This document shows positions 1 through 37,205 of a stretch of DNA of 64,000 nucleotides, piece by piece. The notes below the pieces were generated by a model. The model saw only the letters and a program-made list of their open reading frames with translations. It searched no databases and was not told where the DNA came from. Each line of letters begins with the position of its first letter. Within the stretch, counting starts at the first letter, position 1. Where the stretch lies: positions 28,976 to 92,975 of the forward strand of contig CBDCNM010000001.1 in the NCBI GenBank assembly GCA_965219385.1. The letters are read 5' to 3'. This stretch comes from Candidatus Latescibacterota bacterium. Lineage in GTDB: Bacteria > Latescibacterota > UBA2968 > UBA8231. A program made the translations under genes and the position numbers.

Positions 1-2397
1 GGGTACTGGTTGGGCGGCAGCGGTCAGACGGAAGCCCTGTCAGCCGCATCCGGCGACGAGGGCCACTTGAAGAATGCGGATGGTTCGTGGAAATACACCA
101 ACGCCCTCGTCCACGAGACCAGCCCGTACCTGCTGCTGCACGCCCACAACCCGGTGGAGTGGTATCCCTGGGGACCCGAAGCCTTGGAGCGGGCCCGCCG
201 AGAGGACAAGCCCATTTTCCTGTCGGTAGGGTACTCCACCTGCTACTGGTGCCACGTCATGGAGCGGAAGGTCTTCGCCAATCCGCAGATCGCCGCCTTG
301 ATGAACCAGTGGTTCGTCAACATCAAGGTAGACCGGGAGGAACGGCCGGATCTGGATCAGATCTACATGACCGCCACCCGGCTGTTGAATCGCGGCCATG
401 GCGGCTGGCCCAATTCGGTCTTCATGAATCCGGACTTACAGCCCTTCTTCGCCGGCACCTATTTCCCACCCGAGGACGCCCACGGCCGTCCCGGCTTTCC
501 CCGCTTGCTGCAGGTGCTGCACCAGGCATGGCAGAAGCGCCGCGACGAGGTGGAAGAAAGCGCCGCCCAGATAACCGCGGCGATCCGCGAGGAGGTGGCG
601 AGCCGGCGGCAGACGCCGGCCATGGCGCCGGATACCGTACTGGTGAACCGGTCCCTCGCAGCTGTAAAGGGCCGCTACGACGCCTACTACGGCGGGTTTG
701 GGGGGGCTCCCAAATTTCCTCCCTGCATACGGTTGGAGTTTTTGCTGGGCACCTGGGAAAGAGAAAAGGACGAATCTTCTCTGAAGATGGTAGCCCACAC
801 CCTGGTTGCCATGGCCCGCGGCGGAATATACGACCAGGTGGGAGGAGGGTTTCACCGCTACGCCACCGATGCCCAGTGGCAAATCCCTCACTTCGAAAAA
901 ATGCTCTACAACCAGGCGCATCTAGCGCATCTGTACCTGAGTGTGTATCGGGCCACGGGAGAAGAAGCCTGGAGGTGGGTGGCCGAGGATATCTTCCGGT
1001 TTGTAGCTCGCGAGATGACGGATGCGGACGGAGGCTTCTATTCGGCCCTGGACGCCGAGACCGAAGCGGTGGAGGGCAAGTACTACCTGTGGACCGAAGA
1101 GGCCATTTCCGAAATCCTGGGCGACGAAGCCGTGTTGTTTTTCGAGGTTTACGATCTGGTCGCCATGCCCGAGGGAGAAGGCATGGTGCTCTTCGTGCCC
1201 AGGTCGCTGGAAGAAGTCGCCGTGGACCTGGAGATGGCGCTGCCGGCCCTGCGGAGCCGGGTAGAGGGGTTGCGCGCCCGTCTGCTGAAGCAGCGCTCGA
1301 CGCGCCTGTACCCCCTGCTGGACGATAAGATCCTGACTTCCTGGAACGGCATGATGATCGCTTCCTACGCCCTTGGCTACGAGGTCCTCAAGGAGGAGTC
1401 CTACCGCCGAACAGCCGAGGCTGCTGCCGAATTTGTGCTCGAACGCATGCGCACGGCGGATGGGGGATTGAAGCGGTTGTACCGTCATGGCGCCGTCAAG
1501 TACGAAGGCTACCTGGAGGACTATGCCTTTTTCGCTCAGGGCCTGCTGAGCCTGTACCGCGCCACGGGCGACGAGCGCTGGCTGCGGGAGGGACGGGCCA
1601 TCGTCGACCAGATGGTCTTGCGGTTCTGGGACGGGGAAGACGACGGATTTTTCTTTACCGAGAGCGGAACCGACCTGATCGTGCGCATCAAGGACGCCCA
1701 GGACTCGGCCCTGCCGGGGGCGAATGCGGTGGCCGTGCACAGCCTGCTCGACCTGGTTCAGTGGACCGGAGAGATGGCCTATCTGGACCGGGCGCGCCAG
1801 ACCCTGCATGCCTTTGGCAGCATGATGCAGGGCAGCCCCAGCGCCTTCACCCATCTGGTTGCCGCGGCGAGGAAGTACCTGGAGATTGCGGCGCTACGGC
1901 CGGTTGCCGTGGGCTTGCCGGCCATGCCCGCAGCCCTCCAGGGGAAGGCCCCGCTGATTCCCGCAGTGCTGTTGCGGACCCGGGTGGACCTCTCGGTGGA
2001 CAGGCCGGCGCCCGGTCAGGACTTTCAGGTCGCGGTCCATCTCGATATCAGCAAAGGCTGGCACATAAACGCCAACCCCTCTTCCAGCGAGATGCTGATT
2101 CCCACCTCTTTGACTTTGAATGCGGATCTGCCGCTCGAGGTCCTCGAGATCGACTATCCCGGGGCCACCGCTTTCTACTCTGCCGCTCTGGACGAGACCT
2201 TGAAGGTGTACCAGGACCGGGTTACCTTGCGGGCAGGGGTGCGGCTGAAGCCGGAGGCCGCGATGGGCCAGCAGGGCCGGCTGAATCTGCTTTTGCAGTA
2301 CCAAGCCTGCGACGACACCCGGTGCCTGCCGCCGGCCGAAGTGCTGGAAACGATTGATCTGGAAGTGGCGTCCGCAGGGGTTGCAGGGGGACGTTAG
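1..2397 (+). CDS. Thioredoxin-domain protein of the DUF255/YyaL (SSP411-like) family with a C-terminal DsbD-N-like domain; 5' end probably runs off the window
   Basis: Frame 1 is open from nt 1 (track ORF 10..2397 begins at TTG). Motifs [20 protein letters not shown] and [13 protein letters not shown] (DUF255 thioredoxin-like CxxC). Long central alpha-helical region. C-terminal GWHINANP...[13 protein letters not shown] resembles the DsbD N-terminal domain. Confidence 0.8.
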
Positions 2398-3425
2398 TTC
2401 AACTGCCCGCCGCAGGAACTGCCGGCACCGGCAGTGCAGCCGTAGCAGTGATCAGCCAGGGCGATGGGGCCTTGGTTGAACCCTTGCAACGAGGCGATGT
2501 CCCAGATCGTCCTCTGGGTTGAGGCCACGGGGATTTCCAGCATCTGATTGAAATCGCAGTCGTAGAGCCGTCCATCCCAGCCGATCGAGATGAGATCCCG
2601 GCACATCACATCGTCCAGATTGTGGACATTGAAGCTGTTTACCAGGAGCGTCATGTACTCCTCCAGCGCCTCCATGTGTTTGAGGTCGTAGAGGAAGCGC
2701 TTGATCGGCATGTTGGTAATGGTGAAGAGGTGGTTGAACTCGATGCCAAAATCCTCCCGAAGGCGTTCGTGGTAGTCGCCTTCAAGCTCTTGCTGGTCGG
2801 GTGGCAGGGAGGGGCCCACCGGGTTGTAGACCAAGTTGAGGATCCGGCCGCTGTCCGCTTTGCCGTATCCCAGAGCGTTGAGTAGTTGGAGGGCGCGAAT
2901 ACTCTGGTCGAATACCCCCTGACCGCGCTGTTTTTCCACGTTTTCCCTTGAGTAACAGGGCATGGAGGCCATGACCTCGATGGAGTTTTGAGCGAGGAAC
3001 TGGGCGGTGTCCTCCTGGCCGGGCTGGAACAGGACGGTGAGGTTGCAGCGATCGATGACCCGCAGGTCTCGCTGGCGAGCCCGGGTGGCCAGGTAGCGGA
3101 AGTGGGGATTGAGCTCGGGGGCGCCGCCGGTTATATCCATGGTCTCGAGGTCCTCGGATCCGGGCATATCCATGAGTCCCACGATGCGTTCGGCGGTTTC
3201 CCGGGTCATGATTTCGCGGCGCCGGGGACCGGCTTCGACGTGGCAGTGGCGGCAGGTCTGGTTGCACAGCTTGCCCACGTTGACCTGCAGGGTGCGCAGG
3301 GTGCGCCGCGTCAGGGAGAGGTTGTGTTCGGTCAGGGTGCGGGCAAAAGGGACCCAGTTGCCAACCAGGGCATCCTTGTCCGGCTTTTGGTCTACTGAGA
3401 TGACCAGGGGCAGGGTATCGTTCAT
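2394..3425 (-). CDS. Radical SAM/Cys-rich domain protein (ArsS-like family)
   Basis: CNQTCRHCH radical-SAM CxxxCxxC motif; C-terminal Cys-rich tail [15 protein letters not shown]. The track ORF starts at TTG 3491, but ATG 3425 is preceded by AAGGAAG about 5 nt upstream. Its stop codon overlaps the stop of the convergent gene 1..2397. Confidence 0.75.
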
Positions 3426-3509
3426 AATATCTTCCTTGAGCGTGCTCTCACCCGGAGTGAGAATCCTCGTTTTTATAGGCTGTTTTCCCAACAGATCCTT
3501 TTTCCGTAT

Positions 3510-7466: not shown

Positions 7467-10013
7467 TTAGACTTCTTCTCCCATCCCCGCTTCCCGCAAA
7501 GCCCCCAGCAGGCAGGGCACTCCGAAGAATAGCAGGCTCACGTACATGGGGCTCAGGCCCACGGACCCTCTGCGTTTGGGATCGTCGCTCCAGTCCTGAA
7601 GGGCAATCAGGTGCTGCAGGACGGCGCGGCCAACCTTTAGGTAGCGCGGGTTTTTTCGCAGCCGGTAGGCGTGGGCCAGGTGGCGACATACAATGCCGCC
7701 GTAGCTGTGCTGGATGGCCGTCTCTGCGTCAAAGTTCTGGCCGCAGAACCAGTCCACTGCCCTGCAGTAGACCGTGGCCACGTCCGCCCGCCCCGTCATC
7801 CGGTGCAGCAGTTCCAGGCCGATCATCAGGTAGTGCGTCTGGTAGCCTTTCTGTTCCGATGCCGGCAACACCCGAATAAGCGGGGCGTCCTCTCCCCGCA
7901 GCCTCAGGTGTTCCTGGTCGGTAAAGGGAGGAGCCGTGCCCATTTCCACGGCCAGGGTGGTGCCCTCGGTCGCCATCCCGTAGGGCGCCTGATCGGGCAG
8001 CCGGTCCGGGGTTGAAATCTGGAAGCGCTTGTGCCAGCTGCCGTCTTCGTTCTGCCCCCGGGCAATCGCGTCGTAGACCTCCTCGGCGCGCTTTTTGAAG
8101 CGCTCTTCGCCGCTCATCTCGTAGACGTAGAGCAGGCCGCGCAGGGTATTGGCAATGCTTCGCAGGCTGAAACTATAGGTCGGGTCCTCGGTCCAGCGAT
8201 AGCGCAGGAAAAAGCCGCCGGTCTCGCGCAGTACTTCGGCGGTGCGCAAATCGCCGGTCAAGTAGTAGTAGTCCATCCAGTTGTCCACAAAGGTGTGCGA
8301 GGCGCACGGCTCATCCCCGTAGTGGTCGACGCTGTGGCGAAAACAACCACCCACCATGTAGGGACGGAAGGGATGGAAATGGCAGGTATCCACGTCCATG
8401 GAGTGTCGGGTCATGGCTTCCCCCAGGCGGAAATAGCGATCTTCTCCCGTGCGCAGGTAGTGTATCCAGACCCCGTGGCGAGGGTCCCATTCACTGTTGC
8501 ACCAGCCCCAGCGGCCGTAAAAACGCCAGTTGTTGCGGGCTTCTTCCCAGGCCACCAGCATATCTCCCCAGTCGAAAAACCCGTACCACCCGCCCAGCTG
8601 TATGCTGCGTTCCACCCAATCCAGAAAACCCCGCATCATGCGCTCCGAAGCGGGAAAGGTCTCGGGGTCGAGCGGTGCAAATCCGCCCGTCACGTCGCAC
8701 CGGGCGGTCCAGGCCGGGTCCACAGATACATGGGGAAAAGCCAGCAATCCGCGCAGGACGTCCGTGGTTTCCGCATCCTGGTCGGACCGGTAGAAAGAGA
8801 TGAAAAATTCGCTGGTCTTGGCCGTACCCGCACCATCCGCGTACACCCCTTCCCCCTCGCCCCACGACACCTCTTCGCTGTAGCGCCTAAAGTTCAGCCG
8901 CCCGCCGTCCGGGTCGCGCCACAGATAAACATCGATGCCCCGTCCGCTGCCCGAGGTCCCCAGGGCCTTGGGGTACTCCTCGGCCATGGCGCGCAGCGCG
9001 ACCCCTACGCCGGCCCGGTCGTTCTCCAGCGCCATCCAGCCCGCGGTGCGCTCGCCCTCAGCCGTGGTCTTTTTCCGACCGGCCGTCCGGCGTTCCAGGC
9101 GAAAGTGGTTGACCTGGCGCTGGGACAGCAGCAGGTAGTCGTCCGCAGCCAGGGAGCCCTCTTCGGAGCGGACCGATGAGACGCGGTAGCGCAGGGGGCC
9201 CTCCAGTGCCGCCGGCACCTGCACGGCGATCTCTTCTACTTCGGTCTGGCGCGGGTTGCAGGCCACGACCACCGTGGGCAGGACCCGCACAAAAGGCTGG
9301 CCGGCATAGGCGTAGAGGCGCACGATGTAGCGGAAGGGCCGGTAGCCTGAATAGTGGTGCATGGGCACATCGGCCTCAAAACTTCCCGCACAGCGGATCA
9401 CCGCCCGCAGGGGACCGGACTCTTCCACCTCTACCCGATAGTCGTCCTCTGCCAGCGAGGCCAGACAATCGCCGCCCATGCCGTAGATCTGCCGTCGACC
9501 TTCCTGGGTGGAGAAGGATTCGCAGATTCTGATCCATGCTTCGCCGCCTTTTCCCGGGGGAACTATTTCGCACTCGGCGACAAAACCACCGTCTTGCTCC
9601 AGTCGGCCCAGTTCGACGGATTCGACCAGGCCGAAGCGCCGCCGGTCAATTGAGAAACGCAGCGGGCCGCTGCACACAGTGATGTACTGGTCGTCTTCCT
9701 CAATCTGTAGTCCAGGCCCTCCTTCAATGTCCTTGCTCTCTCCTCCATAACGCAGATTGTACACGGCTGTCCCACCTGCCGGCACATCCGCCTGAAAATC
9801 GGTCAGTACCCACTTCGTGCTTCCGTCGGGCCAGTAGCTCAATACCCGCAACTGGGATGCTACGGGCTCGCCCTGGGGATCCGCCACCCACACTGTATCC
9901 AGGTTTTGCAGCTCGCTTTCGGGCAGAGGCACACCCCGGGTAATGGGCCAGCGCCGACGGGAGATGCCCTGACTTTCCGTTACTCTGAGTTCAACTTTTT
10001 GCCCCTCTGCCAT
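7467..10013 (-). CDS. Large (848 aa) uncharacterised protein, possibly PcRGLX-like (exo-rhamnogalacturonan-lyase-like: beta-barrel N-terminus plus alpha/alpha-toroid C-terminus)
   Basis: Long uninterrupted ORF. ATG at 10013 (MAEGQKVEL...) is preferred over the alternative-codon start at 10157. N-terminal RRRWPITRGVPLPE...WPDGSTKWVLTDF and central WGWCNSEWDPRHGVWIHYLRTG recall that family from memory only. No signal peptide seen. Confidence 0.6.
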   Translation of the reverse strand: MAEGQKVELRVTESQGISRRRWPITRGVPLPESELQNLDTVWVADPQGEPVASQLRVLSYWPDGSTKWVLTDFQADVPAGGTAVYNLRYGGESKDIEGGPGLQIEEDDQYITVCSGPLRFSIDRRRFGLVESVELGRLEQDGGFVAECEIVPPGKGGEAWIRICESFSTQEGRRQIYGMGGDCLASLAEDDYRVEVEESGPLRAVIRCAGSFEADVPMHHYSGYRPFRYIVRLYAYAGQPFVRVLPTVVVACNPRQTEVEEIAVQVPAALEGPLRYRVSSVRSEEGSLAADDYLLLSQRQVNHFRLERRTAGRKKTTAEGERTAGWMALENDRAGVGVALRAMAEEYPKALGTSGSGRGIDVYLWRDPDGGRLNFRRYSEEVSWGEGEGVYADGAGTAKTSEFFISFYRSDQDAETTDVLRGLLAFPHVSVDPAWTARCDVTGGFAPLDPETFPASERMMRGFLDWVERSIQLGGWYGFFDWGDMLVAWEEARNNWRFYGRWGWCNSEWDPRHGVWIHYLRTGEDRYFRLGEAMTRHSMDVDTCHFHPFRPYMVGGCFRHSVDHYGDEPCASHTFVDNWMDYYYLTGDLRTAEVLRETGGFFLRYRWTEDPTYSFSLRSIANTLRGLLYVYEMSGEERFKKRAEEVYDAIARGQNEDGSWHKRFQISTPDRLPDQAPYGMATEGTTLAVEMGTAPPFTDQEHLRLRGEDAPLIRVLPASEQKGYQTHYLMIGLELLHRMTGRADVATVYCRAVDWFCGQNFDAETAIQHSYGGIVCRHLAHAYRLRKNPRYLKVGRAVLQHLIALQDWSDDPKRRGSVGLSPMYVSLLFFGVPCLLGALREAGMGEEV

Positions 10014-10050
10014 TATTTCATTTGTTCCTGATGGATTCCAAGAAGGTTTC

Positions 10051-10791
10051 TTAAGGATATTTGAGGAAACCCGTATTCGGGTGCTTTGCCTTCCAGTTGT
10101 TCCAGCGGGTGTGGATGGATTCGAATTCCGGCAGTTTCCGGTCGGCGTAGAAACCACTGATGCAGGTCAGACCGGTGTCGCCTGGCAGGTGGTACCACAG
10201 GCTTTCTGTCTCGTAGTCGAAGAGCACAAAGGTGTAGTTGTAGGTCCATCCACTGGCGCTCAGGGTCAGAATCTTGCCATTGATCTCGCGACTGTACACG
10301 GCAGTCAGGTTGGCCAGTGGTCAGAAGGCCACGGCTACGTGCGTCTCCCCGAAGACCTCGTTGGCGACTTCGTGCCAGGTCAAGGCACTATCCCAGGTGG
10401 GATAGGCGCGGATGAAACCGCTCAGGCTGACCCCCAGCACCGGAAAATCACTGGAATCGGACGGATAGTTCGGATGGCCCGGGGACAGCATCTGGGGATT
10501 CACGATAGGCTGGATGGCGTAGGGACCCAGGCCGAACTGGTACCCGGATGGAACCAGACCGTACCTCAGGGCATGGGTCACGTCCCAGGACTTGCCGGTG
10601 CGGTCAGTGATGATGGCCCGTCCACCTTTCTCAGCGTAGCTGTCCGTCCCCTGGTTGTCGTTCCCATAGTTCCTCTGGCTGCCCTCCTCATAGTAGCGGG
10701 AAGGGGTGTTGTAAATGCTGTCGCCGCTGCAACCACTCGAAAGCAGGCCGGCGAGACAGCCGAAAAGCGCGAGCAAGAGTGCGTGTATCAT
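10051..10791 (-). CDS. DUF3179-family lipoprotein with in-frame TGA (10321..10323) at the conserved Cys position; candidate selenoprotein (paralogue A, 246 aa)
   Basis: Track ORFs 10321..10791 and 10051..10299 share one frame and are separated only by a TGA. The joined product aligns along its length with the DUF3179 core of 12087..13547 (AYP, WHEVAN, VAVAF-U-PLANL vs VTL-C-PLTG, VLFDYETESLWY vs VMYDRRNDRTLY). Lipoprotein-type signal MIHALLLALFGCLAGLLSSGC. SD-like AGAGG lies 7 nt upstream of the ATG. Confidence 0.7.
10290..10306 (-). promoter_or_regulatory. Candidate bacterial SECIS hairpin for paralogue A
   Basis: mRNA GACUG-CCGUGUA-CAGUC starts 14 nt after the UGA. It has a 5-bp stem and a 7-nt loop containing GU. 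The same structure occurs in paralogue B with an A-U to G-C compensatory change. Confidence 0.5.
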
Positions 10792-10815
10792 ATGCTTGCC
10801 TCTACGGAGGAGAGG

Positions 10816-11631
10816 TTAGAAGCGCATCAGGTTCGGGTAGAGCATGAACTTGGTCTGGGGATGTTCCTGGCGCCACTGCTGCCAGCTCGCTCGCTTGGAG
10901 CGGAATTCCGGCAGGTGGCGGTCCCTGTGCGGACCGGAAATCCCGGTGAGTCCTCTGGTCCCGGGCAGGGGGTACCACAGGGTACCGGTCTCCTGGTCAT
11001 AGAGCACAAAGGTCTGGCGGTAGGTCCACCCGCTCGGCGCCAGGGTCAGGGTCTGTCCATCCAGTTCGCGGCTGTACACGGCAGCCAGGTCCACCAGGGG
11101 TCAGTAGGCCACGGCGAACGGGGTCTCGCCGATGGTCTCGTTGACGATCTCGTGGCGTGCCAGCGGGCGAATGGGGTAGCTGCGCACATCGCCTTCGATC
11201 TCGGTGCCGATGACCGGGATGGTGTCCCAGGCCCCCGGATAGGCGGGCTCGCCGGGGGCGATCATCTCGGGATGGTCGAGGGGACGCATGGCGTTCTTGC
11301 CGATGCCGTACTCGAACCCGTGGCGGCTCATGCCGTAGTTTTGGACCGCATGGGTGATATCGAAACGCTCACCGCGGCGATCGGTGATGTAGATGCGCTC
11401 GGAGCCTTGCCGGCTTTCCCCGGCGGCCGCCCGGGTATCCATGGCCGGTGGCATTGGGGCGCAAGCGACAAACACAGTCAGTAGAGGCCAGGCAAAGGAT
11501 CTAAGAAGCCATCTCAAAACCCCCGGCGGCCGTCGCCCGGCTGCAAAGGCGGAGGCCGGCATTGCCCAAAAGCAGCCATACCCCGGCGATCTAAGAAGCC
11601 TTCTAAAAAAATCGAAGCGCATGGGGAACAT
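10816..11631 (-). CDS. DUF3179-family lipoprotein with in-frame TGA (11101..11103) at the conserved Cys position; candidate selenoprotein (paralogue B)
   Basis: Track ORFs 11101..11631 and 10816..11094 share one frame and are separated only by a TGA (FAVAY-U-PLVDLAAVYSRE). Homologous to paralogue A throughout. The start is uncertain: ATG 11631, 11622 or 11562, or TTG 11517. TTG 11517 would give a classic lipoprotein signal, MRWLLRSFAWPLLTVFVAC. Confidence 0.65.
11070..11086 (-). promoter_or_regulatory. Candidate bacterial SECIS hairpin for paralogue B
   Basis: mRNA GGCUG-CCGUGUA-CAGCC starts 14 nt after the UGA. The loop is identical to paralogue A; the second stem pair is G-C instead of A-U. 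Confidence 0.5.
11502..11514. promoter_or_regulatory. Palindromic motif site a (TAAGAAGCCATCT)
   Basis: One mismatch to the core AGAAGSCTTCT. Part of the 22-nt near-duplicate GATCTAAGAAGCCWTCTMAAAA, repeated exactly 90 nt away. Confidence 0.5.
11592..11605. promoter_or_regulatory. Palindromic motif site b (TAAGAAGCCTTCTA)
   Basis: Exact core, in the 5' region of DUF3179 paralogue B. Confidence 0.5.
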
Positions 11632-11715
11632 TCTCCTGTCTACCTACTAATATAAGAAACATGAAACATGTACAAAATCACCATTATCAGTACCTTGATG
11701 AACCCACGTGAAGAA

Positions 11716-11884
11716 CATGCCGGGATCAAGGTCGGAAGGGGATGTTGCCGGGGGCGTTTTGTGGGGGGGTAGTGGCCGGGAATAGACTAAGGAGGCCGGC
11801 CGATCTTTGGGGTGGCACCTGAGGCGAGCCCGACAACCAGAGAAAGGTCGCTCAACCATCTGGGACTCATAAAACGCCAGAGGC
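11716..11884 (-). repeat. Intergenic repeat family, copy 1 (about 169 bp, full length)
   Basis: Read on the minus strand it begins GCCTCTGGCGTTTTATGAGTCCCAGATGG and ends ...CCCACAAAACGCCCCCGGCAACATCCCC...GGCATG. Both ends match copy 3, and 105 bp matches copy 2 nearly base for base. Contains the internal 8-nt complement GGCGTTTT/AAAACGCC. Confidence 0.7.
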
Positions 11885-12024
11885 GGCATTCCCTTTCGGC
11901 CGTTCGCCGATTTCGCTCGGGCTCGGGGCGCAGCAGCAGGGAGGGATGAGACGGATATCCGCTTGGAGGGCGAATGAGCATACTTTACGGAAGGATCTGA
12001 AAATATTATTTTTGCAACTTGGGC

Positions 12025-12058
12025 AGAGTTGGTATCGTCTAAGAGTTGGTATCGTCTA
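12025..12058 (+). repeat. Perfect 17-bp tandem direct repeat (AGAGTTGGTATCGTCTA x2) about 30 nt upstream of the DUF3179/T9SS gene
   Basis: 12025..12041 and 12042..12058 are identical when read directly. Confidence 0.9.
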
Positions 12059-12086
12059 TAAAATAAACATCCAGGAGAACCCAGCC

Positions 12087-13547
12087 GTGAAGCACAAAAC
12101 CATCTTTGTCGGATTGATCCTGGGACTGGCGGTCAGCCAGGTCCAGGCCGGGGTTTTCGACCAGTTCGAAGATATCGAAGTCCTGATAAAAATGCACATG
12201 CTCTCGGGCGGCCCGGGGAAAGATGGGATCCCGGCCATGACCAACCCCGAGTTCGTGGATCCGGACCAGGTCGAATACGTGCGGGACGACGAGTTGGTGA
12301 TGGGGGTCTACATGCATGGAGAGGTCAAGGCCTATCCGGAGAATCTGGGCTGGTGGCACGAAATCGTCAACGACCAGATCGGCGACCAGTTCATCTCGGT
12401 CACCCTGTGTCCGCTCACCGGTACCGGCATGGTCTTCAATGCCACGGACGCGGACGGCAGCCAGATCGAATTCGGGGTGTCGGGTTTTCTGATCAACACC
12501 AACCTGGTGATGTACGACCGCCGCAACGACCGGACCCTTTACCCCCAGATGATCTACACCGGCCTCAACGACGATTTCAAGAACCAACAGCTGGAGTTGC
12601 TGCCGGTGGTGGAGACCACCTGGGGGATGTGGAAGCAGATGTACCCCGAAACCAAGGTGGCCCAGTTCGGGACGGGCCTGGAGCGCTACTCCGAGCGGAA
12701 ACAGCAGAGTTACCTCGATGTTGATCGCTTCCGCAGTTATCCCTATGGAAACTACCGGACCGACAACAACAACCTGTTTTTATATGCCCGGCCTACTTCC
12801 TCTATGGATCTGAGAACCCTCGAAGTCAAGGATGTGGTGCTGGGGTTGTGCCAGAACGACCAGCTCAAAGCCTACCCCTTCCCGGATATGCCGGACGGGG
12901 CCGTGATCAACGACGAACTGGGGGGCGTGCCCCTGCTGGTGGTCTTCGAGCGGGAGGCGTCCCTGGCCATACCCTTTTATCGCGAGGTGGACGGCCAGGT
13001 ATTGACCTTCTACGAGGTTGAGCCCGAGGGGAATCTGCCGGTGGAGTTCATGGACGCGGAGACCCGCTCGCGCTGGAATTTGCGCGGCGAGGCCGTCTCC
13101 GGTCCGCTGGCGGGCCAGCGCCTGCGGCAGATGCCGGGCTACAATTCGATGTGGTTCGCCTGGGCCACCTACTGGCCTGAAACCGACTTGTGGACCTTTG
13201 GAGAAGGCATCATCGAACCACCGCCCACGACCGTAGAGGAAGAGGATATCGCCGCCCTGCCGGAGCACTTCGTCCTGAGCCAGAACTATCCGAACCCCTT
13301 CAATCCGACCACCCACATCCAGTACGCCCTGCCGCAGGACGGCCTGGTGCGTCTGAGCGTGTACAATGCGGCCGGCCAGAAGATCCGCACCCTGGTGGAC
13401 GGGTATCGGGCCCAAGGGCTCTACCTGCAGGACTGGGACGGTCGCGATGAAAGCGGGGCCCAGGTGTCCAGTGGCACCTACCTCTACCGTCTGGAAATGC
13501 CCGAACAGGGGCTGTGTCAGACCCGGAGTATGACCCTGATGCGCTAG
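12087..13547 (+). CDS. DUF3179 domain protein (Cys form) with signal peptide and T9SS type-A C-terminal sorting domain
   Basis: GTG 12087 is preceded by AGGAG (12073..12077). Signal VKHKTIFVGLILGLAVSQVQA. DUF3179 core GGPGKDGIPAMTNPEF, AYPENLGWWHEIVND, VTLCPLTGTG, VMYDRRNDRTLYPQ. C-terminal NYPNPFNPTTHIQYALP...VYNAAGQKIRTL...GTYLYRLEM matches the Por secretion tail. Confidence 0.85.
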   Translation: MKHKTIFVGLILGLAVSQVQAGVFDQFEDIEVLIKMHMLSGGPGKDGIPAMTNPEFVDPDQVEYVRDDELVMGVYMHGEVKAYPENLGWWHEIVNDQIGDQFISVTLCPLTGTGMVFNATDADGSQIEFGVSGFLINTNLVMYDRRNDRTLYPQMIYTGLNDDFKNQQLELLPVVETTWGMWKQMYPETKVAQFGTGLERYSERKQQSYLDVDRFRSYPYGNYRTDNNNLFLYARPTSSMDLRTLEVKDVVLGLCQNDQLKAYPFPDMPDGAVINDELGGVPLLVVFEREASLAIPFYREVDGQVLTFYEVEPEGNLPVEFMDAETRSRWNLRGEAVSGPLAGQRLRQMPGYNSMWFAWATYWPETDLWTFGEGIIEPPPTTVEEEDIAALPEHFVLSQNYPNPFNPTTHIQYALPQDGLVRLSVYNAAGQKIRTLVDGYRAQGLYLQDWDGRDESGAQVSSGTYLYRLEMPEQGLCQTRSMTLMR

Positions 13548-13669: not shown

Positions 13670-16048
13670 ATGCTGAATTTCATTGGCCAATACACCAAAT
13701 GGCTCCACACCCGGTGGCCGGCCGGCGTGGTGGAGAAGCTGCCTCAGGTCGACGAAAACGGCCGCAGCAATATCCCAGGGCTCTATATCGTCGGCGACCT
13801 GACCGGGATTCCCCTGCTCAAGTTTTCCTCGGATTCGGGGGCGCGGGCCGTGCAGCACATCGCCGCCGACCAGGATTTTCACCGCCTGCGCCAGGCGCAG
13901 GCGGACGAGGATATCCTCGACGTGGCCGTTGTCGGCGCCGGAGTCTCGGGCATGGCCGCGGCCCTGGCGGCCCGCAGCGCCGGGCTTTCCTTCGAGATTA
14001 TCGAGGCCACCGAACCCTTTTCCACGGTGGTCAATTTTCCCAGGGGCAAACCCATCTACACCTACCCGACCGAAATGCTACCGGCGGGCGATCTGCAGTT
14101 CACCGCCGAGGTCAAAGAGCCCCTGGTCGAAGAACTCAGAGCCCAGACCCTGGAACAGGGCATCGAGCCGCGTATGGCCCGCGTCGAACAGGTGCAGCGG
14201 CGGGGAGACCTCTTCGAACTGGTGATTCCGGGCCAGGAAAATTTGCGGGCCCGGCGGGTGATTGTGGGCATTGGCCGCTCGGGCAACTTTCGCAAACTGG
14301 GGGTCCCTGGCGAAGACCTAGACAAGGTCTACAACCGCCTGCACGACCCCAAAGATTACGGCGACAGAAAGGCACTGGTGGTGGGCGGCGGCGACAGCGC
14401 CCTGGAGACGGCCATTGCCATTGCCCTGGCCGGAGGGCAGGTCACCTTGTCCTACCGCAAGCCGGAATTTGCCCGTCCCAAGCCGGAGAACATCGAAAAG
14501 CTCGACCAGTTGGCGGCGGATCCTATGGCCGACGTAGCGGTCGAAACGCCCACCTCCGAACGGGTGACCACCTCCAGCGGCCACTTCCTGGAAGAGGGCC
14601 GCAAGGCCGGCAGCATCCGCCTGATGATGGGCAGCACGGTCCAGCGCATCGAGGCAGAGGAAGTGGTGATCAAGGATGCCCAAGGCGAGGAGGTCCGCCT
14701 GCCCAACGACGCGGTCTTCAGCATGATCGGACGCGAGGCTCCACTCGATTTCTTTCGCCGCGGCGGGGTTGCGATCAGGGGAGAAATGAGCGGCAAACAG
14801 TGGGTCGGACTGGCGCTGTTCGTGGCTTTTTGCGCCTTTGTGTACAACTGGAAGGCCGGAGGGCAACTCACCCAGGTCTTTGAGCAGAACGGGTGGTTTC
14901 CCTACCAGATCCCCGCTCTGCTCAAAGGACTCGGGACCGGACTGTCGGCCCGGGCGGCGGAGCCTTCTACCTTTGTGGGCACCCTGATCCTCAATCTTGG
15001 ACAACCCGGGTTCTACTACAGCCTGGTCTACTCGCTGCTGGTGGCCGTCTTCGGGTACCGCCGCATCCGGCGCCGCCAAACCCCCTATATCAGGGCGCAG
15101 ACTCTGTGCCTGACCGCGGTGCAGATTCTGCCCCTCTTTCTGCTGCCCTACCTGATTTTGCCTTACCTAGGGTACAACGGCTTTTTCGACGCTGGTTTTG
15201 CCCGGAGCGTTGCAGATGCGCTTTTCCCCCAGGTAGACTACGGCCACGGCCGCGAGTACTGGCGCGCCTTCGGTCTCGTCTTGGCTTGGCCGCTGTTTAT
15301 CTGGAACGTGTTCACCTACCAGCCCCTGTGGTGGTGGCTGGGGATCAGCCTGGTGCAGACCGTTGTGCTCATCCCCCTGATCATCTATTTCTGGGGCAAG
15401 GGGTCCTATTGCGGCTGGATCTGCTCCTGCGGCGCCCTGGCCGAGACGCTGGGGGATCAGCACCGCCACAAGATGCCCCACGGGGCCTCCTGGAACAAGG
15501 TGAACATGGTGGGGCAGGTCATCCTGGGGTTGTGCGTGGTACTGCTGATTGGCCGGATTTTCAGCTGGGTATGGCCCGATACCGGCGCCGGCGGAATGTT
15601 GCGCGGCCTGTACGAAGGGCTGCTCTACGACTGGAAACCCTTCGGGATACAGCTCAATTACAAGTGGGTCGTAGACCTTTTTCTGGCCGGTATTATCGGG
15701 TACGGGGCCTATTTCTGGTTCAGCGGCCGGGTCTGGTGCCGCTTTGCCTGTCCCCTGGCCGCGCTGATGCACATCTATGCCCGCTTCAGCCGCTTCCGCA
15801 TCCTGGCCGATAAGAAGAAGTGCATTTCCTGCAATGTGTGCACCTCGGTCTGCCACCAGGGGATCGACATCATGAACTTTGCCAATAAGGGGTTGCCCAT
15901 GGCCGACCCGCAGTGCGTGCGCTGCAGCGCCTGCGTGGAATCGTGTCCCACGGGCGTGCTCGAATTCGGCCAGGTCAATCCGGGTAGTGGCCAGGTTTTG
16001 AAACGGGACGGGCTGGCGGCCTCGCTGGTGCGCCAGCACGAGGCTTGA
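13670..16048 (+). CDS. Fusion protein: FAD/NAD(P)-binding pyridine-nucleotide oxidoreductase domain plus NapH/NosR-like polytopic membrane 4Fe-4S (polyferredoxin) domain
   Basis: DVAVVGAGVSGMAAALAA and LVVGGGDSALE dinucleotide-binding motifs. Hydrophobic segments follow, with CGWICSCGALAE and WCRFACPLAAL (NapH-type CxxCP motifs). C-terminal ferredoxin motifs CISCNVCTSVC and CVRCSACVESCP. GAGGA RBS lies before ATG 13670. Confidence 0.8.
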   Translation: MLNFIGQYTKWLHTRWPAGVVEKLPQVDENGRSNIPGLYIVGDLTGIPLLKFSSDSGARAVQHIAADQDFHRLRQAQADEDILDVAVVGAGVSGMAAALAARSAGLSFEIIEATEPFSTVVNFPRGKPIYTYPTEMLPAGDLQFTAEVKEPLVEELRAQTLEQGIEPRMARVEQVQRRGDLFELVIPGQENLRARRVIVGIGRSGNFRKLGVPGEDLDKVYNRLHDPKDYGDRKALVVGGGDSALETAIAIALAGGQVTLSYRKPEFARPKPENIEKLDQLAADPMADVAVETPTSERVTTSSGHFLEEGRKAGSIRLMMGSTVQRIEAEEVVIKDAQGEEVRLPNDAVFSMIGREAPLDFFRRGGVAIRGEMSGKQWVGLALFVAFCAFVYNWKAGGQLTQVFEQNGWFPYQIPALLKGLGTGLSARAAEPSTFVGTLILNLGQPGFYYSLVYSLLVAVFGYRRIRRRQTPYIRAQTLCLTAVQILPLFLLPYLILPYLGYNGFFDAGFARSVADALFPQVDYGHGREYWRAFGLVLAWPLFIWNVFTYQPLWWWLGISLVQTVVLIPLIIYFWGKGSYCGWICSCGALAETLGDQHRHKMPHGASWNKVNMVGQVILGLCVVLLIGRIFSWVWPDTGAGGMLRGLYEGLLYDWKPFGIQLNYKWVVDLFLAGIIGYGAYFWFSGRVWCRFACPLAALMHIYARFSRFRILADKKKCISCNVCTSVCHQGIDIMNFANKGLPMADPQCVRCSACVESCPTGVLEFGQVNPGSGQVLKRDGLAASLVRQHEA

Positions 16049-36797: not shown

Positions 36798-37205
36798 TTA
36801 GCTCAGGTGCTGGCTGACCAGTTTGGTCATCTCGAACATGCTCACCTGCTTTTTGCCACCGAACACGTCCTTGAGTTTGTTGTCCGCATTGATCATGCGC
36901 TTGTTCTGGGTGTCCTGCAAGCCGTTCTTCTTGATGTAGGCCCAGAGCTTTTTGACGACCTGGGTGCGCGGCAAAGCCTTGGAGCCCACCACGGCACCAA
37001 GAGCGGCATCGGGCTGCATAGGTTTCATAAAAGCAGGATTGGGCTTGCGTTTGCTCTTTTTCTTGGGGGCAGCCTTCTTGGGGGCAGCCTTCTTGGGGGC
37101 AGCCTTCTTGGGGGCAGCCTTCTTGGGGGCAGCCTTCTTGGGGGCAGCCTTCTTGGGGGCAGCCTTCTTGGGGGCAGCCTTCTTGGGGGCAGCCTTCTTG
37201 GCCAT
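36798..37205 (-). CDS. SWIB/MDM2 domain protein with N-terminal histone-H1-like (KKAAP)x9 tail
   Basis: MA(KKAAP)9KKKSKRK followed by [22 protein letters not shown]...[12 protein letters not shown] (SWIB fold signature). AAGGAG RBS 7 nt upstream. Confidence 0.85.
37066..37200. repeat. Nine perfect tandem copies of a 15-bp unit (GGGGCAGCCTTCTTG) encoding KKAAP
   Basis: Read directly from the sequence; lies inside the SWIB CDS. Confidence 0.95.

Follow-up and report, generated by a model that had tools for sequence, protein, structure and literature searches.

Two neighbouring genes in a stretch of DNA from a Candidatus Latescibacterota bacterium (64,000 nucleotides, hereafter the window) encode short proteins of the DUF3179 family, and each gene, referred to as paralogue A or paralogue B, carries a single in-frame TGA that is followed by a small RNA hairpin. 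Each hairpin is very probably a bacterial selenocysteine insertion sequence (SECIS) element that lies inside the coding region of a short, exported DUF3179 selenoprotein, as judged from comparative sequence analysis. We favour this reading because the UGA stands at a site aligned with cysteine (Cys), because purifying conservation with a period of three continues downstream of it while UGA is a normal stop elsewhere in the window, and because the RNA-level constraint is confined to the hairpin and specific to UGA-containing genes. The first-pass annotation of this DNA had put the hairpins forward as SECIS candidates, and that proposal is supported here by 152 homologous TGA sites, by compensatory changes in the stem and by the loss of the hairpin in seven of eight Cys sites. 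In the corresponding mechanism, SelB carrying selenocysteine (Sec)-tRNA(Sec) and GTP would bind the hairpin, the spacing between UGA and hairpin would set the tRNA at the ribosomal A site upon arrival of the UGA, selenocysteine would be inserted where homologues have Cys, and translation would run on for about 90 more codons. We infer the binding of SelB, the insertion of selenocysteine and the presence of selA, selB, selC and selD in the genome.

The hairpins of the two tandem genes

Paralogues A and B form a tandem pair on the minus strand (Table 1). With the TGA read through, both match Pfam family PF11376 (107.8 bits for A and 119.7 bits for B, cut-off 27); the match spans the N-terminal half of the model alone (approximately 145 of 292 positions), and the NCBIfam models gave no match to either paralogue. 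Paralogue A begins with a lipoprotein-type signal peptide with an LSSGC lipobox and paralogue B with a lipoprotein-like signal peptide with a lipobox-like VFVAC, and the true start of paralogue B may lie further downstream than its first ATG. Public gene calls cut both genes at the TGA, A into 156 + 82 amino acids (aa) and B into 176 + 87 aa. In a three-way alignment, the TGA codons of A and B coincide with the Cys of L-C-P-L-T in the full-length DUF3179 protein that is transcribed divergently from paralogue B. TGA is also the commonest stop in the window (61.9% G+C), where it ends 16 of the 29, mostly Pfam-supported, genes checked, and it is therefore an ordinary stop in this organism and not globally reassigned.

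After the Sec site, the mRNA of paralogue A reads UGA CCACUGGCCAACCU GACUG CCGUGUA CAGUC and that of paralogue B reads UGA CCCCUGGUGGACCU GGCUG CCGUGUA CAGCC, which confirms from the sequence the like hairpins that the first-pass annotation had located in both genes. The hairpin and its 7-nt loop stand as described there; the spacing of 14 nt and the stem of 5 base pairs (bp) had to be corrected to 13 nt and 6 bp, since an extra U·G pair lengthens the helix, and the hairpin begins 13 nt after the TGA in both genes. The compensatory change reported at the second pair of the 5-bp stem is real and can be read directly from both genes: the pair is A-U in A, within ACU (Thr) and AGU (Ser), and G-C in B, within GCU (Ala) and AGC (Ser), with Thr replaced by Ala on one side and AGU by AGC on the other. 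Folded alone, the hairpin has an energy of -5.5 kcal/mol in A and -7.6 kcal/mol in B. The 60-nt minimum-energy folds are lower in energy, differ between the two paralogues and are built on non-conserved pairings. Two paralogues with a common hairpin and one compensatory pair represent no more than homology gives, and the case from the window by itself is weak.

Constraint on the hairpin across homologues

Homologues were collected in a species-level genome scan (one genome per species), which yielded 80 loci, and in a metagenome scan, which yielded 79 more; after removal of duplicates the sample comprised 152 distinct TGA sites, eight distinct Cys sites and one variant with neither. The loci from the genome scan derive from Latescibacterota, KSB1, Calditrichota/Calditrichia, Krumholzibacteriia, Gemmatimonadota and other bins, and tandem arrays of two to three Sec paralogues are common among the homologues (e.g., L010, L015 and L008). 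The codons after the TGA are always CCN CUN, with no start codon conserved there, and residue 4 of the U-P-L-x motif is mostly V, A or I and occasionally E or Q. A protein search returned approximately 90 clusters of 135-175 aa that stop exactly at ...HVAVAY/F and have therefore been cut at this codon by gene callers. The same search returned a few full-length forms with C at the Sec position, some with W and a more distant group with R; for the forms with W (P0003, P0004, P0010 and P0033), some ENA calls read TGA as W, as with genetic code 4.

The stem is maintained throughout the TGA homologues. All six pairs are kept at 146 of the 152 sites, four further sites keep five pairs, the remaining two retain three canonical pairs in one case and four in the other, and every loop contains CGUG; TGA homologues without the stem, which the first-pass annotation had named as evidence that would speak against a SECIS element, were not encountered. 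Both sites with three to four canonical pairs, together with one five-pair site, have a register-shifted stem of 4-5 bp with the 8-nt loop CGUGUAYA and G at loop position 2 (L039:3306, L113:996 and L010:2615; L126:894 has the same sequence as L039). The shifted register shows a compensation of its own (U-A versus G-C, L113 against L039).

In an ungapped covariation alignment of 89 sequences (A3), 98.9% of the cells of the helix are paired and four of the six pairs have changed on both sides. None of 500 shuffles of A3 attained any of five measures, and sliding the 3' arm by one to three columns lowered pairing to 18-55%. RNAalifold, run unguided, returned exactly these six pairs and no other helix across 69 columns. 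The pair that differs between A and B is G-C in 64 of the 89 sequences and A-U in 18, with six G·U and one A·C as intermediates, and a parsimony count places at least ten independent switches between the A-U and G-first states on a neighbour-joining tree that was built from protein sequence with the hairpin-encoded residues excluded. At the next pair, C-G has turned into G-C in one clade via GGU (Gly) and ACC (Thr), and another sequence has GCC and GGC. Coupled non-synonymous changes thus occur with complementarity kept, in the form of Ala/Ser, Thr/Ser, Gly/Thr and Ala/Gly codon pairs.

Constraint at synonymous positions follows the same boundaries. With the T of the TGA numbered 0, the entropy of the third positions +17, +20, +23, +26 and +29 lies at 0-0.2 bit across the 152 TGA genes, compared with a mean of 1.66 bit over 25 third positions outside +15..+35, and the flanks of these genes span values of G+C content at third codon positions (GC3) between 0.17 and 0.92. 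The Val codon of the loop is GTG at all 152 sites, Ala is always encoded by GCC at +21 (135 of 135 cases) and nearly always by GCT at +18 (103 of 105). The V-A-V-A(Y) stretch that directly precedes the TGA in these genes uses all synonymous codons, including all four for Val. Downstream of the hairpin, entropy is 3-periodic (1.03, 0.73 and 1.69 bit at codon positions 1, 2 and 3), and the persistence of this pattern indicates that the frame is translated beyond the TGA.

The Cys forms provide a control for coding constraint. The TGA aligns with Cys in the eight distinct Cys homologues, as it does in the full-length protein of the window. All eight encode L-(T/V/A)-A-V-Y-x-R, seven of them by other synonymous codons (e.g., TTA ACG GCA GTA TAT) and with the hairpin lost. 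The first-pass annotation had seen a purely coding constraint in the case that Cys-containing homologues keep the same hairpin, which for the most part they do not. An intact hairpin with CGUG was found at 146 of 152 Sec sites and one of eight Cys sites (Fisher p = 2.8e-8, phylogeny ignored), and GTG at 152 of 152 Sec sites and two of eight Cys sites (Fisher p = 1.3e-9, likewise with phylogeny ignored). In loci L029 and L087 a Cys copy adjoins a Sec copy on one contig, and L-T-A-V-Y is encoded by different codons in the two; since both copies share a contig, base composition cannot account for this difference. The Ser position of the hairpin is less constrained in Cys forms, where K, D or N occurs instead, and this would fit an AGY codon that is held by the stem in the Sec forms alone.

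Relation to known SECIS elements and weight of the alternatives

The bSECIS model for bacterial SECIS elements (Zhang and Gladyshev 2005), as given in the legend to Fig. 2 of a 2026 review (PMC13188914), comprises a loop of 3-9 nt, an upper stem of 4-16 bp, a G within the first two loop positions, a distance of 16-37 nt from the UGA to the apical loop and a minimum free energy of -7.5 kcal/mol or lower; according to the same review, a subset of real bacterial SECIS elements fail the model. The hairpins described here resemble the model in being coding-region stem-loops directly after an in-frame UGA, in both window genes and at the 152 homologous sites, in having a 7-nt loop with G-U and a 6-bp stem, and in a distance from UGA to loop of 19 nt (+3 to +21) that is the same in all homologues. 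They differ in that no lower helix is conserved and in that their primary sequence hardly varies between phyla, whereas little shared sequence is described for bSECIS elements (PMC13188914). The minimal SECIS element of E. coli fdhF (Liu et al. 1998, as described in PMC8659212) consists of an upper stem-loop of 17 nt, spaced 11 nt from the UGA, and has a bulged U17 in the 5' arm and G23/U24 in the loop. The window hairpins are likewise short and autonomous and stand at a fixed short distance (19 nt in length, starting 13 nt after the UGA), and their apical loop contains a seemingly essential G-U, at G25/U26 compared with G23/U24 in E. coli (U of UGA = 1). Unlike the E. coli element, they have no bulged U and carry a 7-nt loop or pentaloop instead of GGUC, their spacing is 2 nt longer and an extended structure of 40 nt is lacking. 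Such a longer structure, as in E. coli, was considered and rejected, as the 60-nt folds of A and B differ and RNAalifold retains the 6-bp helix alone. By analogy, the element would act like a minimal SECIS element, and it is not a sequence relative of characterised ones.

Several observations weigh against this interpretation. By the bSECIS model, and counting canonical pairs only, the loop starts with C-C and has its G at position 3 in both window copies, and the hairpin of A is weaker than the energy threshold, which B passes. The position, the size and the G-U of the loop, for which the first-pass annotation had seen a fit to bacterial SECIS elements, are borne out, and the energy is borderline. 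Counting the C·A between the two loop ends as a closing pair leaves CGUGU as the loop, in which G stands second; across 89 sites, the bases at loop positions 1 and 7 are C·A in 73 cases, U-A in seven, C-G in three and G·A in six, and G occupies loop position 1 at six of the 152 sites. The family mean of the hairpin energy is -7.5 kcal/mol, with 70% of sites at or below that value. Comparison of folding energy with shuffled controls, a check that the first-pass annotation had proposed, revealed no excess stability (z = -0.45 for A and -0.32 for B against dinucleotide shuffles), and stability was therefore dropped as evidence. A search of Rfam (release 15) with positions 9800..11800 on both strands gave no match up to E = 10.

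Other points against the SECIS interpretation concern the comparison with Cys forms and the translation machinery. The Fisher p values carry no phylogenetic correction. Five of the seven loop bases are codon positions 1 and 2 of A-V-Y, residues that are conserved in Cys forms too, so that the RNA-specific signal rests on approximately seven synonymous or near-synonymous positions; the caveats raised at the outset (a short stem, CC at the start of the loop and the coding constraint by A-V-Y) were fair. The Cys site L084:1420 (TGC) keeps the hairpin nucleotide for nucleotide, plausibly as the result of a recent Sec-to-Cys change, and L086:4420 (P0002), in which T-S-E replaces U-P-L, keeps it exactly and may represent a degenerate copy or an assembly error. 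The latter gene has transposase genes on both sides and lies on a long-read contig of low coverage. Finally, the window, 64 kb of a source contig of roughly 5.7 Mb, yielded no tRNA-Sec, and SelA, SelB or SelD domains were absent from the approximately 30 window open reading frames (ORFs) scanned. Scans of 60 related loci for tRNAs likewise found no tRNA-Sec.

Three other explanations could account for a hairpin at this site. It could be a by-product of coding constraint, with L-(A/T)-A-V-Y-S-R happening to use self-complementary codons and the RNA being functionless. The conservation of A-V-Y in Cys forms, which fixes five of the seven loop bases, and a stability no greater than that of shuffles are in line with such an origin; we nevertheless regard it as very improbable, given that third positions within the hairpin have an entropy of 0-0.2 bit compared with 1.66 bit outside despite the wide range of flank GC3, that Cys homologues, free in their choice of codons, encode this peptide and have lost the pairing, and that even amino-acid changes come in complementary codon pairs (GGU/ACC and GCC/GGC). 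Slightly more room, though still little, is left for decoding or bypass of the UGA without Sec, either by read-through with a near-cognate tRNA or by termination and re-initiation with two polypeptides as products, in which case the hairpin would be a stimulatory or pausing element. Read-through stimulators usually consist of a hairpin placed soon after the stop codon, the search of the 64-kb window turned up no Sec machinery, and public annotations contain two ORFs per gene. Against these points, the UGA aligns with a conserved Cys, which is the hallmark of a Sec site, and the family had been catalogued among the selenoproteins before; moreover, no start is conserved after the TGA, which is invariably followed by CCN CUN. 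For a Cys homologue, AlphaFold predicts a single compact domain (predicted local distance difference test, pLDDT, 88) with the Cys in a strand-rich core, and the loop G-U lies at a distance from the UGA near that of E. coli.

The 19-mer could also be a signal unrelated to decoding, such as a target of a small RNA or RNase, a transcription pause, or a hot spot of recombination or gene conversion among tandem paralogues. Tandem arrays of two to three paralogues are common, so gene conversion could homogenise short stretches; however, the same 19-mer is kept between phyla and not in tandem copies alone, adjacent synonymous sites are saturated, and the compensatory changes point to a folded single strand. 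The element is also tied to TGA: a search for such hairpins behind TGAs in 1.1 Mb of window and related sequence found that essentially only DUF3179 TGAs qualify. A role outside decoding is accordingly as poorly placed as the coding by-product, and a SECIS element remains by far the most probable identity of the hairpin.

DUF3179 is listed as a selenoprotein family with the motif UxxC/T (PMC9312934, PMC13188914), and the earliest report of DUF3179 selenoproteins concerns the Olavius algarvensis symbiont metagenome (PMC1976440). The window genes share with these catalogued proteins the PF11376 domain and Sec in place of the conserved Cys of C-P-L, and they differ in having UPLA and UPLV instead of UxxC/T, in being half-length with lipoprotein signals, and in being Latescibacterota-like rather than from Deltaproteobacteria. 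On sequence grounds, they would represent an undescribed UPLV/UPLA subfamily with a compact SECIS element, not a new selenoprotein family. An exported lipoprotein-type U-P-L-V/A subfamily would thereby be added to the DUF3179 selenoproteins; a published selenoproteome analysis of these phyla was not found, and a literature search on selenocysteine use in Latescibacteria gave no relevant result. The annotation would be corrected for the two window genes and, by extension, for over 150 distinct genes of public metagenomes now split at the TGA into two "hypothetical" or DUF3179 fragments. No new mechanism is revealed, as a SECIS element is expected after a Sec-UGA, and the prior listing of DUF3179 lowers the novelty of the finding. 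The neighbouring Sec and Cys copies and the at least ten compensatory switches amount to a natural experiment in which a coding-region SECIS element would constrain codon choice and even amino-acid choice, and the 19-nt hairpin is a candidate minimal SECIS element for studying SelB specificity outside Proteobacteria and Firmicutes.

Whether the hairpins form a distinct compact class of SECIS elements, sequence-invariant and defined by a 6-bp stem, a C-G-U-G-U pentaloop closed by C·A, and the lack of both a lower helix and a bulged U, is a more tentative matter, and we consider such a class possible but rather unlikely. If it exists, SelB of Latescibacterota, KSB1, Calditrichota and related phyla would read a loop motif unlike that of E. 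coli and Moorella, and requirements of the RNA would dictate coupled substitutions (Ala/Ser, Thr/Ser and Gly/Thr) in the protein. Predictors of bSECIS elements would then systematically miss the element, which would fit the observation that every public record splits these genes.

Locus features, protein fold and gene neighbourhood

The coordinates of the two genes, their predicted Sec codons and hairpins, and the divergently transcribed full-length gene are compiled in Table 1. The product of the last has additional FlgD_ig/CHU_C matches and a match to NCBIfam TIGR04183.

Table 1 Features of the DUF3179 locus, in positions of the window
Feature	Position	Strand	Remarks
Paralogue A, predicted short DUF3179 selenoprotein gene, 246 codons + TAA stop	10051..10791	-	Open apart from a single in-frame TGA
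Paralogue B, predicted short DUF3179 selenoprotein gene, 271 codons from first ATG + TAA stop	10816..11631	-	Open apart from a single in-frame TGA
Predicted Sec-UGA codon of paralogue A, motif F-U-P-L-A	10321..10323	-	Aligned with Cys of CPL
Predicted Sec-UGA codon of paralogue B, motif Y-U-P-L-V	11101..11103	-	Aligned with Cys of CPL
Putative SECIS hairpin of paralogue A	10289..10307; stem 10307..10302 / 10294..10289 (UGACUG/CAGUCG), loop 10301..10295 (CCGUGUA)	-	Folding, RNAalifold family helix
Putative SECIS hairpin of paralogue B	11069..11087; stem 11087..11082 / 11074..11069 (UGGCUG/CAGCCG), loop 11081..11075 (CCGUGUA)	-	Folding, RNAalifold family helix
Full-length DUF3179 protein with type IX secretion system (T9SS) C-terminal sorting domain, Cys form (LCPLT)	11946..13547	+	PF11376, 265 bits

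The two paralogues differ in the residues that follow Sec: paralogue B and its clade in other genomes have LTGISG, and paralogue A and most homologues have LTCISG, with a conserved second Cys. If this second Cys is a resolving partner for Sec, paralogues A and B would differ in chemistry. The short DUF3179 proteins have no sequence relative in the PDB. The AlphaFold model of the Cys homologue P0006 is predicted with confidence (pLDDT 88.3), and a Foldseek search of this model against the PDB gave no fold match (best E = 0.04, TM < 0.2).

The hairpin search of the 1.1 Mb returned two further candidates. On the minus strand of the window, at ~37325-37300 (loop start 37309), cctct-CCGUGAG-ggagg stands 21 nt after a TGA; it lies in a non-coding leader with in-frame stops on both sides and was rejected as a chance match. 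The loop core of this hairpin is the same as in rare DUF3179 variants. A minus-strand hit in L012 has a frame that is open on both sides of the TGA and is without support as a SECIS site.

A radical SAM protein encoded at 2394-3491 (-) matches NCBIfam TIGR04167, 'arsenosugar biosynthesis radical SAM (seleno)protein ArsS', with 438 bits (cut-off 300), and in six related loci (L004, L005, L010, L015, L065 and L068) ArsS homologues are encoded no more than a few kb away from the short DUF3179 Sec genes. ArsS was considered as a second selenoprotein for comparison of the loops and was set aside, as the proteins in the window, L004, L005, L010, L015 and L065 are Cys forms (tail GSSCGG or GSSCAG). 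At 13670-16048 (+), a 792-aa fusion protein combines a pyridine-nucleotide-disulphide oxidoreductase with a NapH-like polyferredoxin membrane domain, and its homologues stand beside DUF3179 genes in two Latescibacterota genomes (L004 and L005) with 77-79% identity. Together with a DsbH/DsbD_N-like protein at 10-2397, this fusion gives the surroundings of the DUF3179 genes a certain thiol-redox character. Immediately downstream of paralogue A, an 850-aa PcRGLX-like / GH127-like protein is encoded at 7467-10019 (-); it has a counterpart of 76% identity in L001 and is not conserved in the other related loci. Further away, at 36798-37205 (-), the N-terminus of a SWIB-domain protein consists of nine tandem KKAAP units, which are encoded in the DNA by a perfect 15-nt repeat, AAGAAGGCTGCCCCC.

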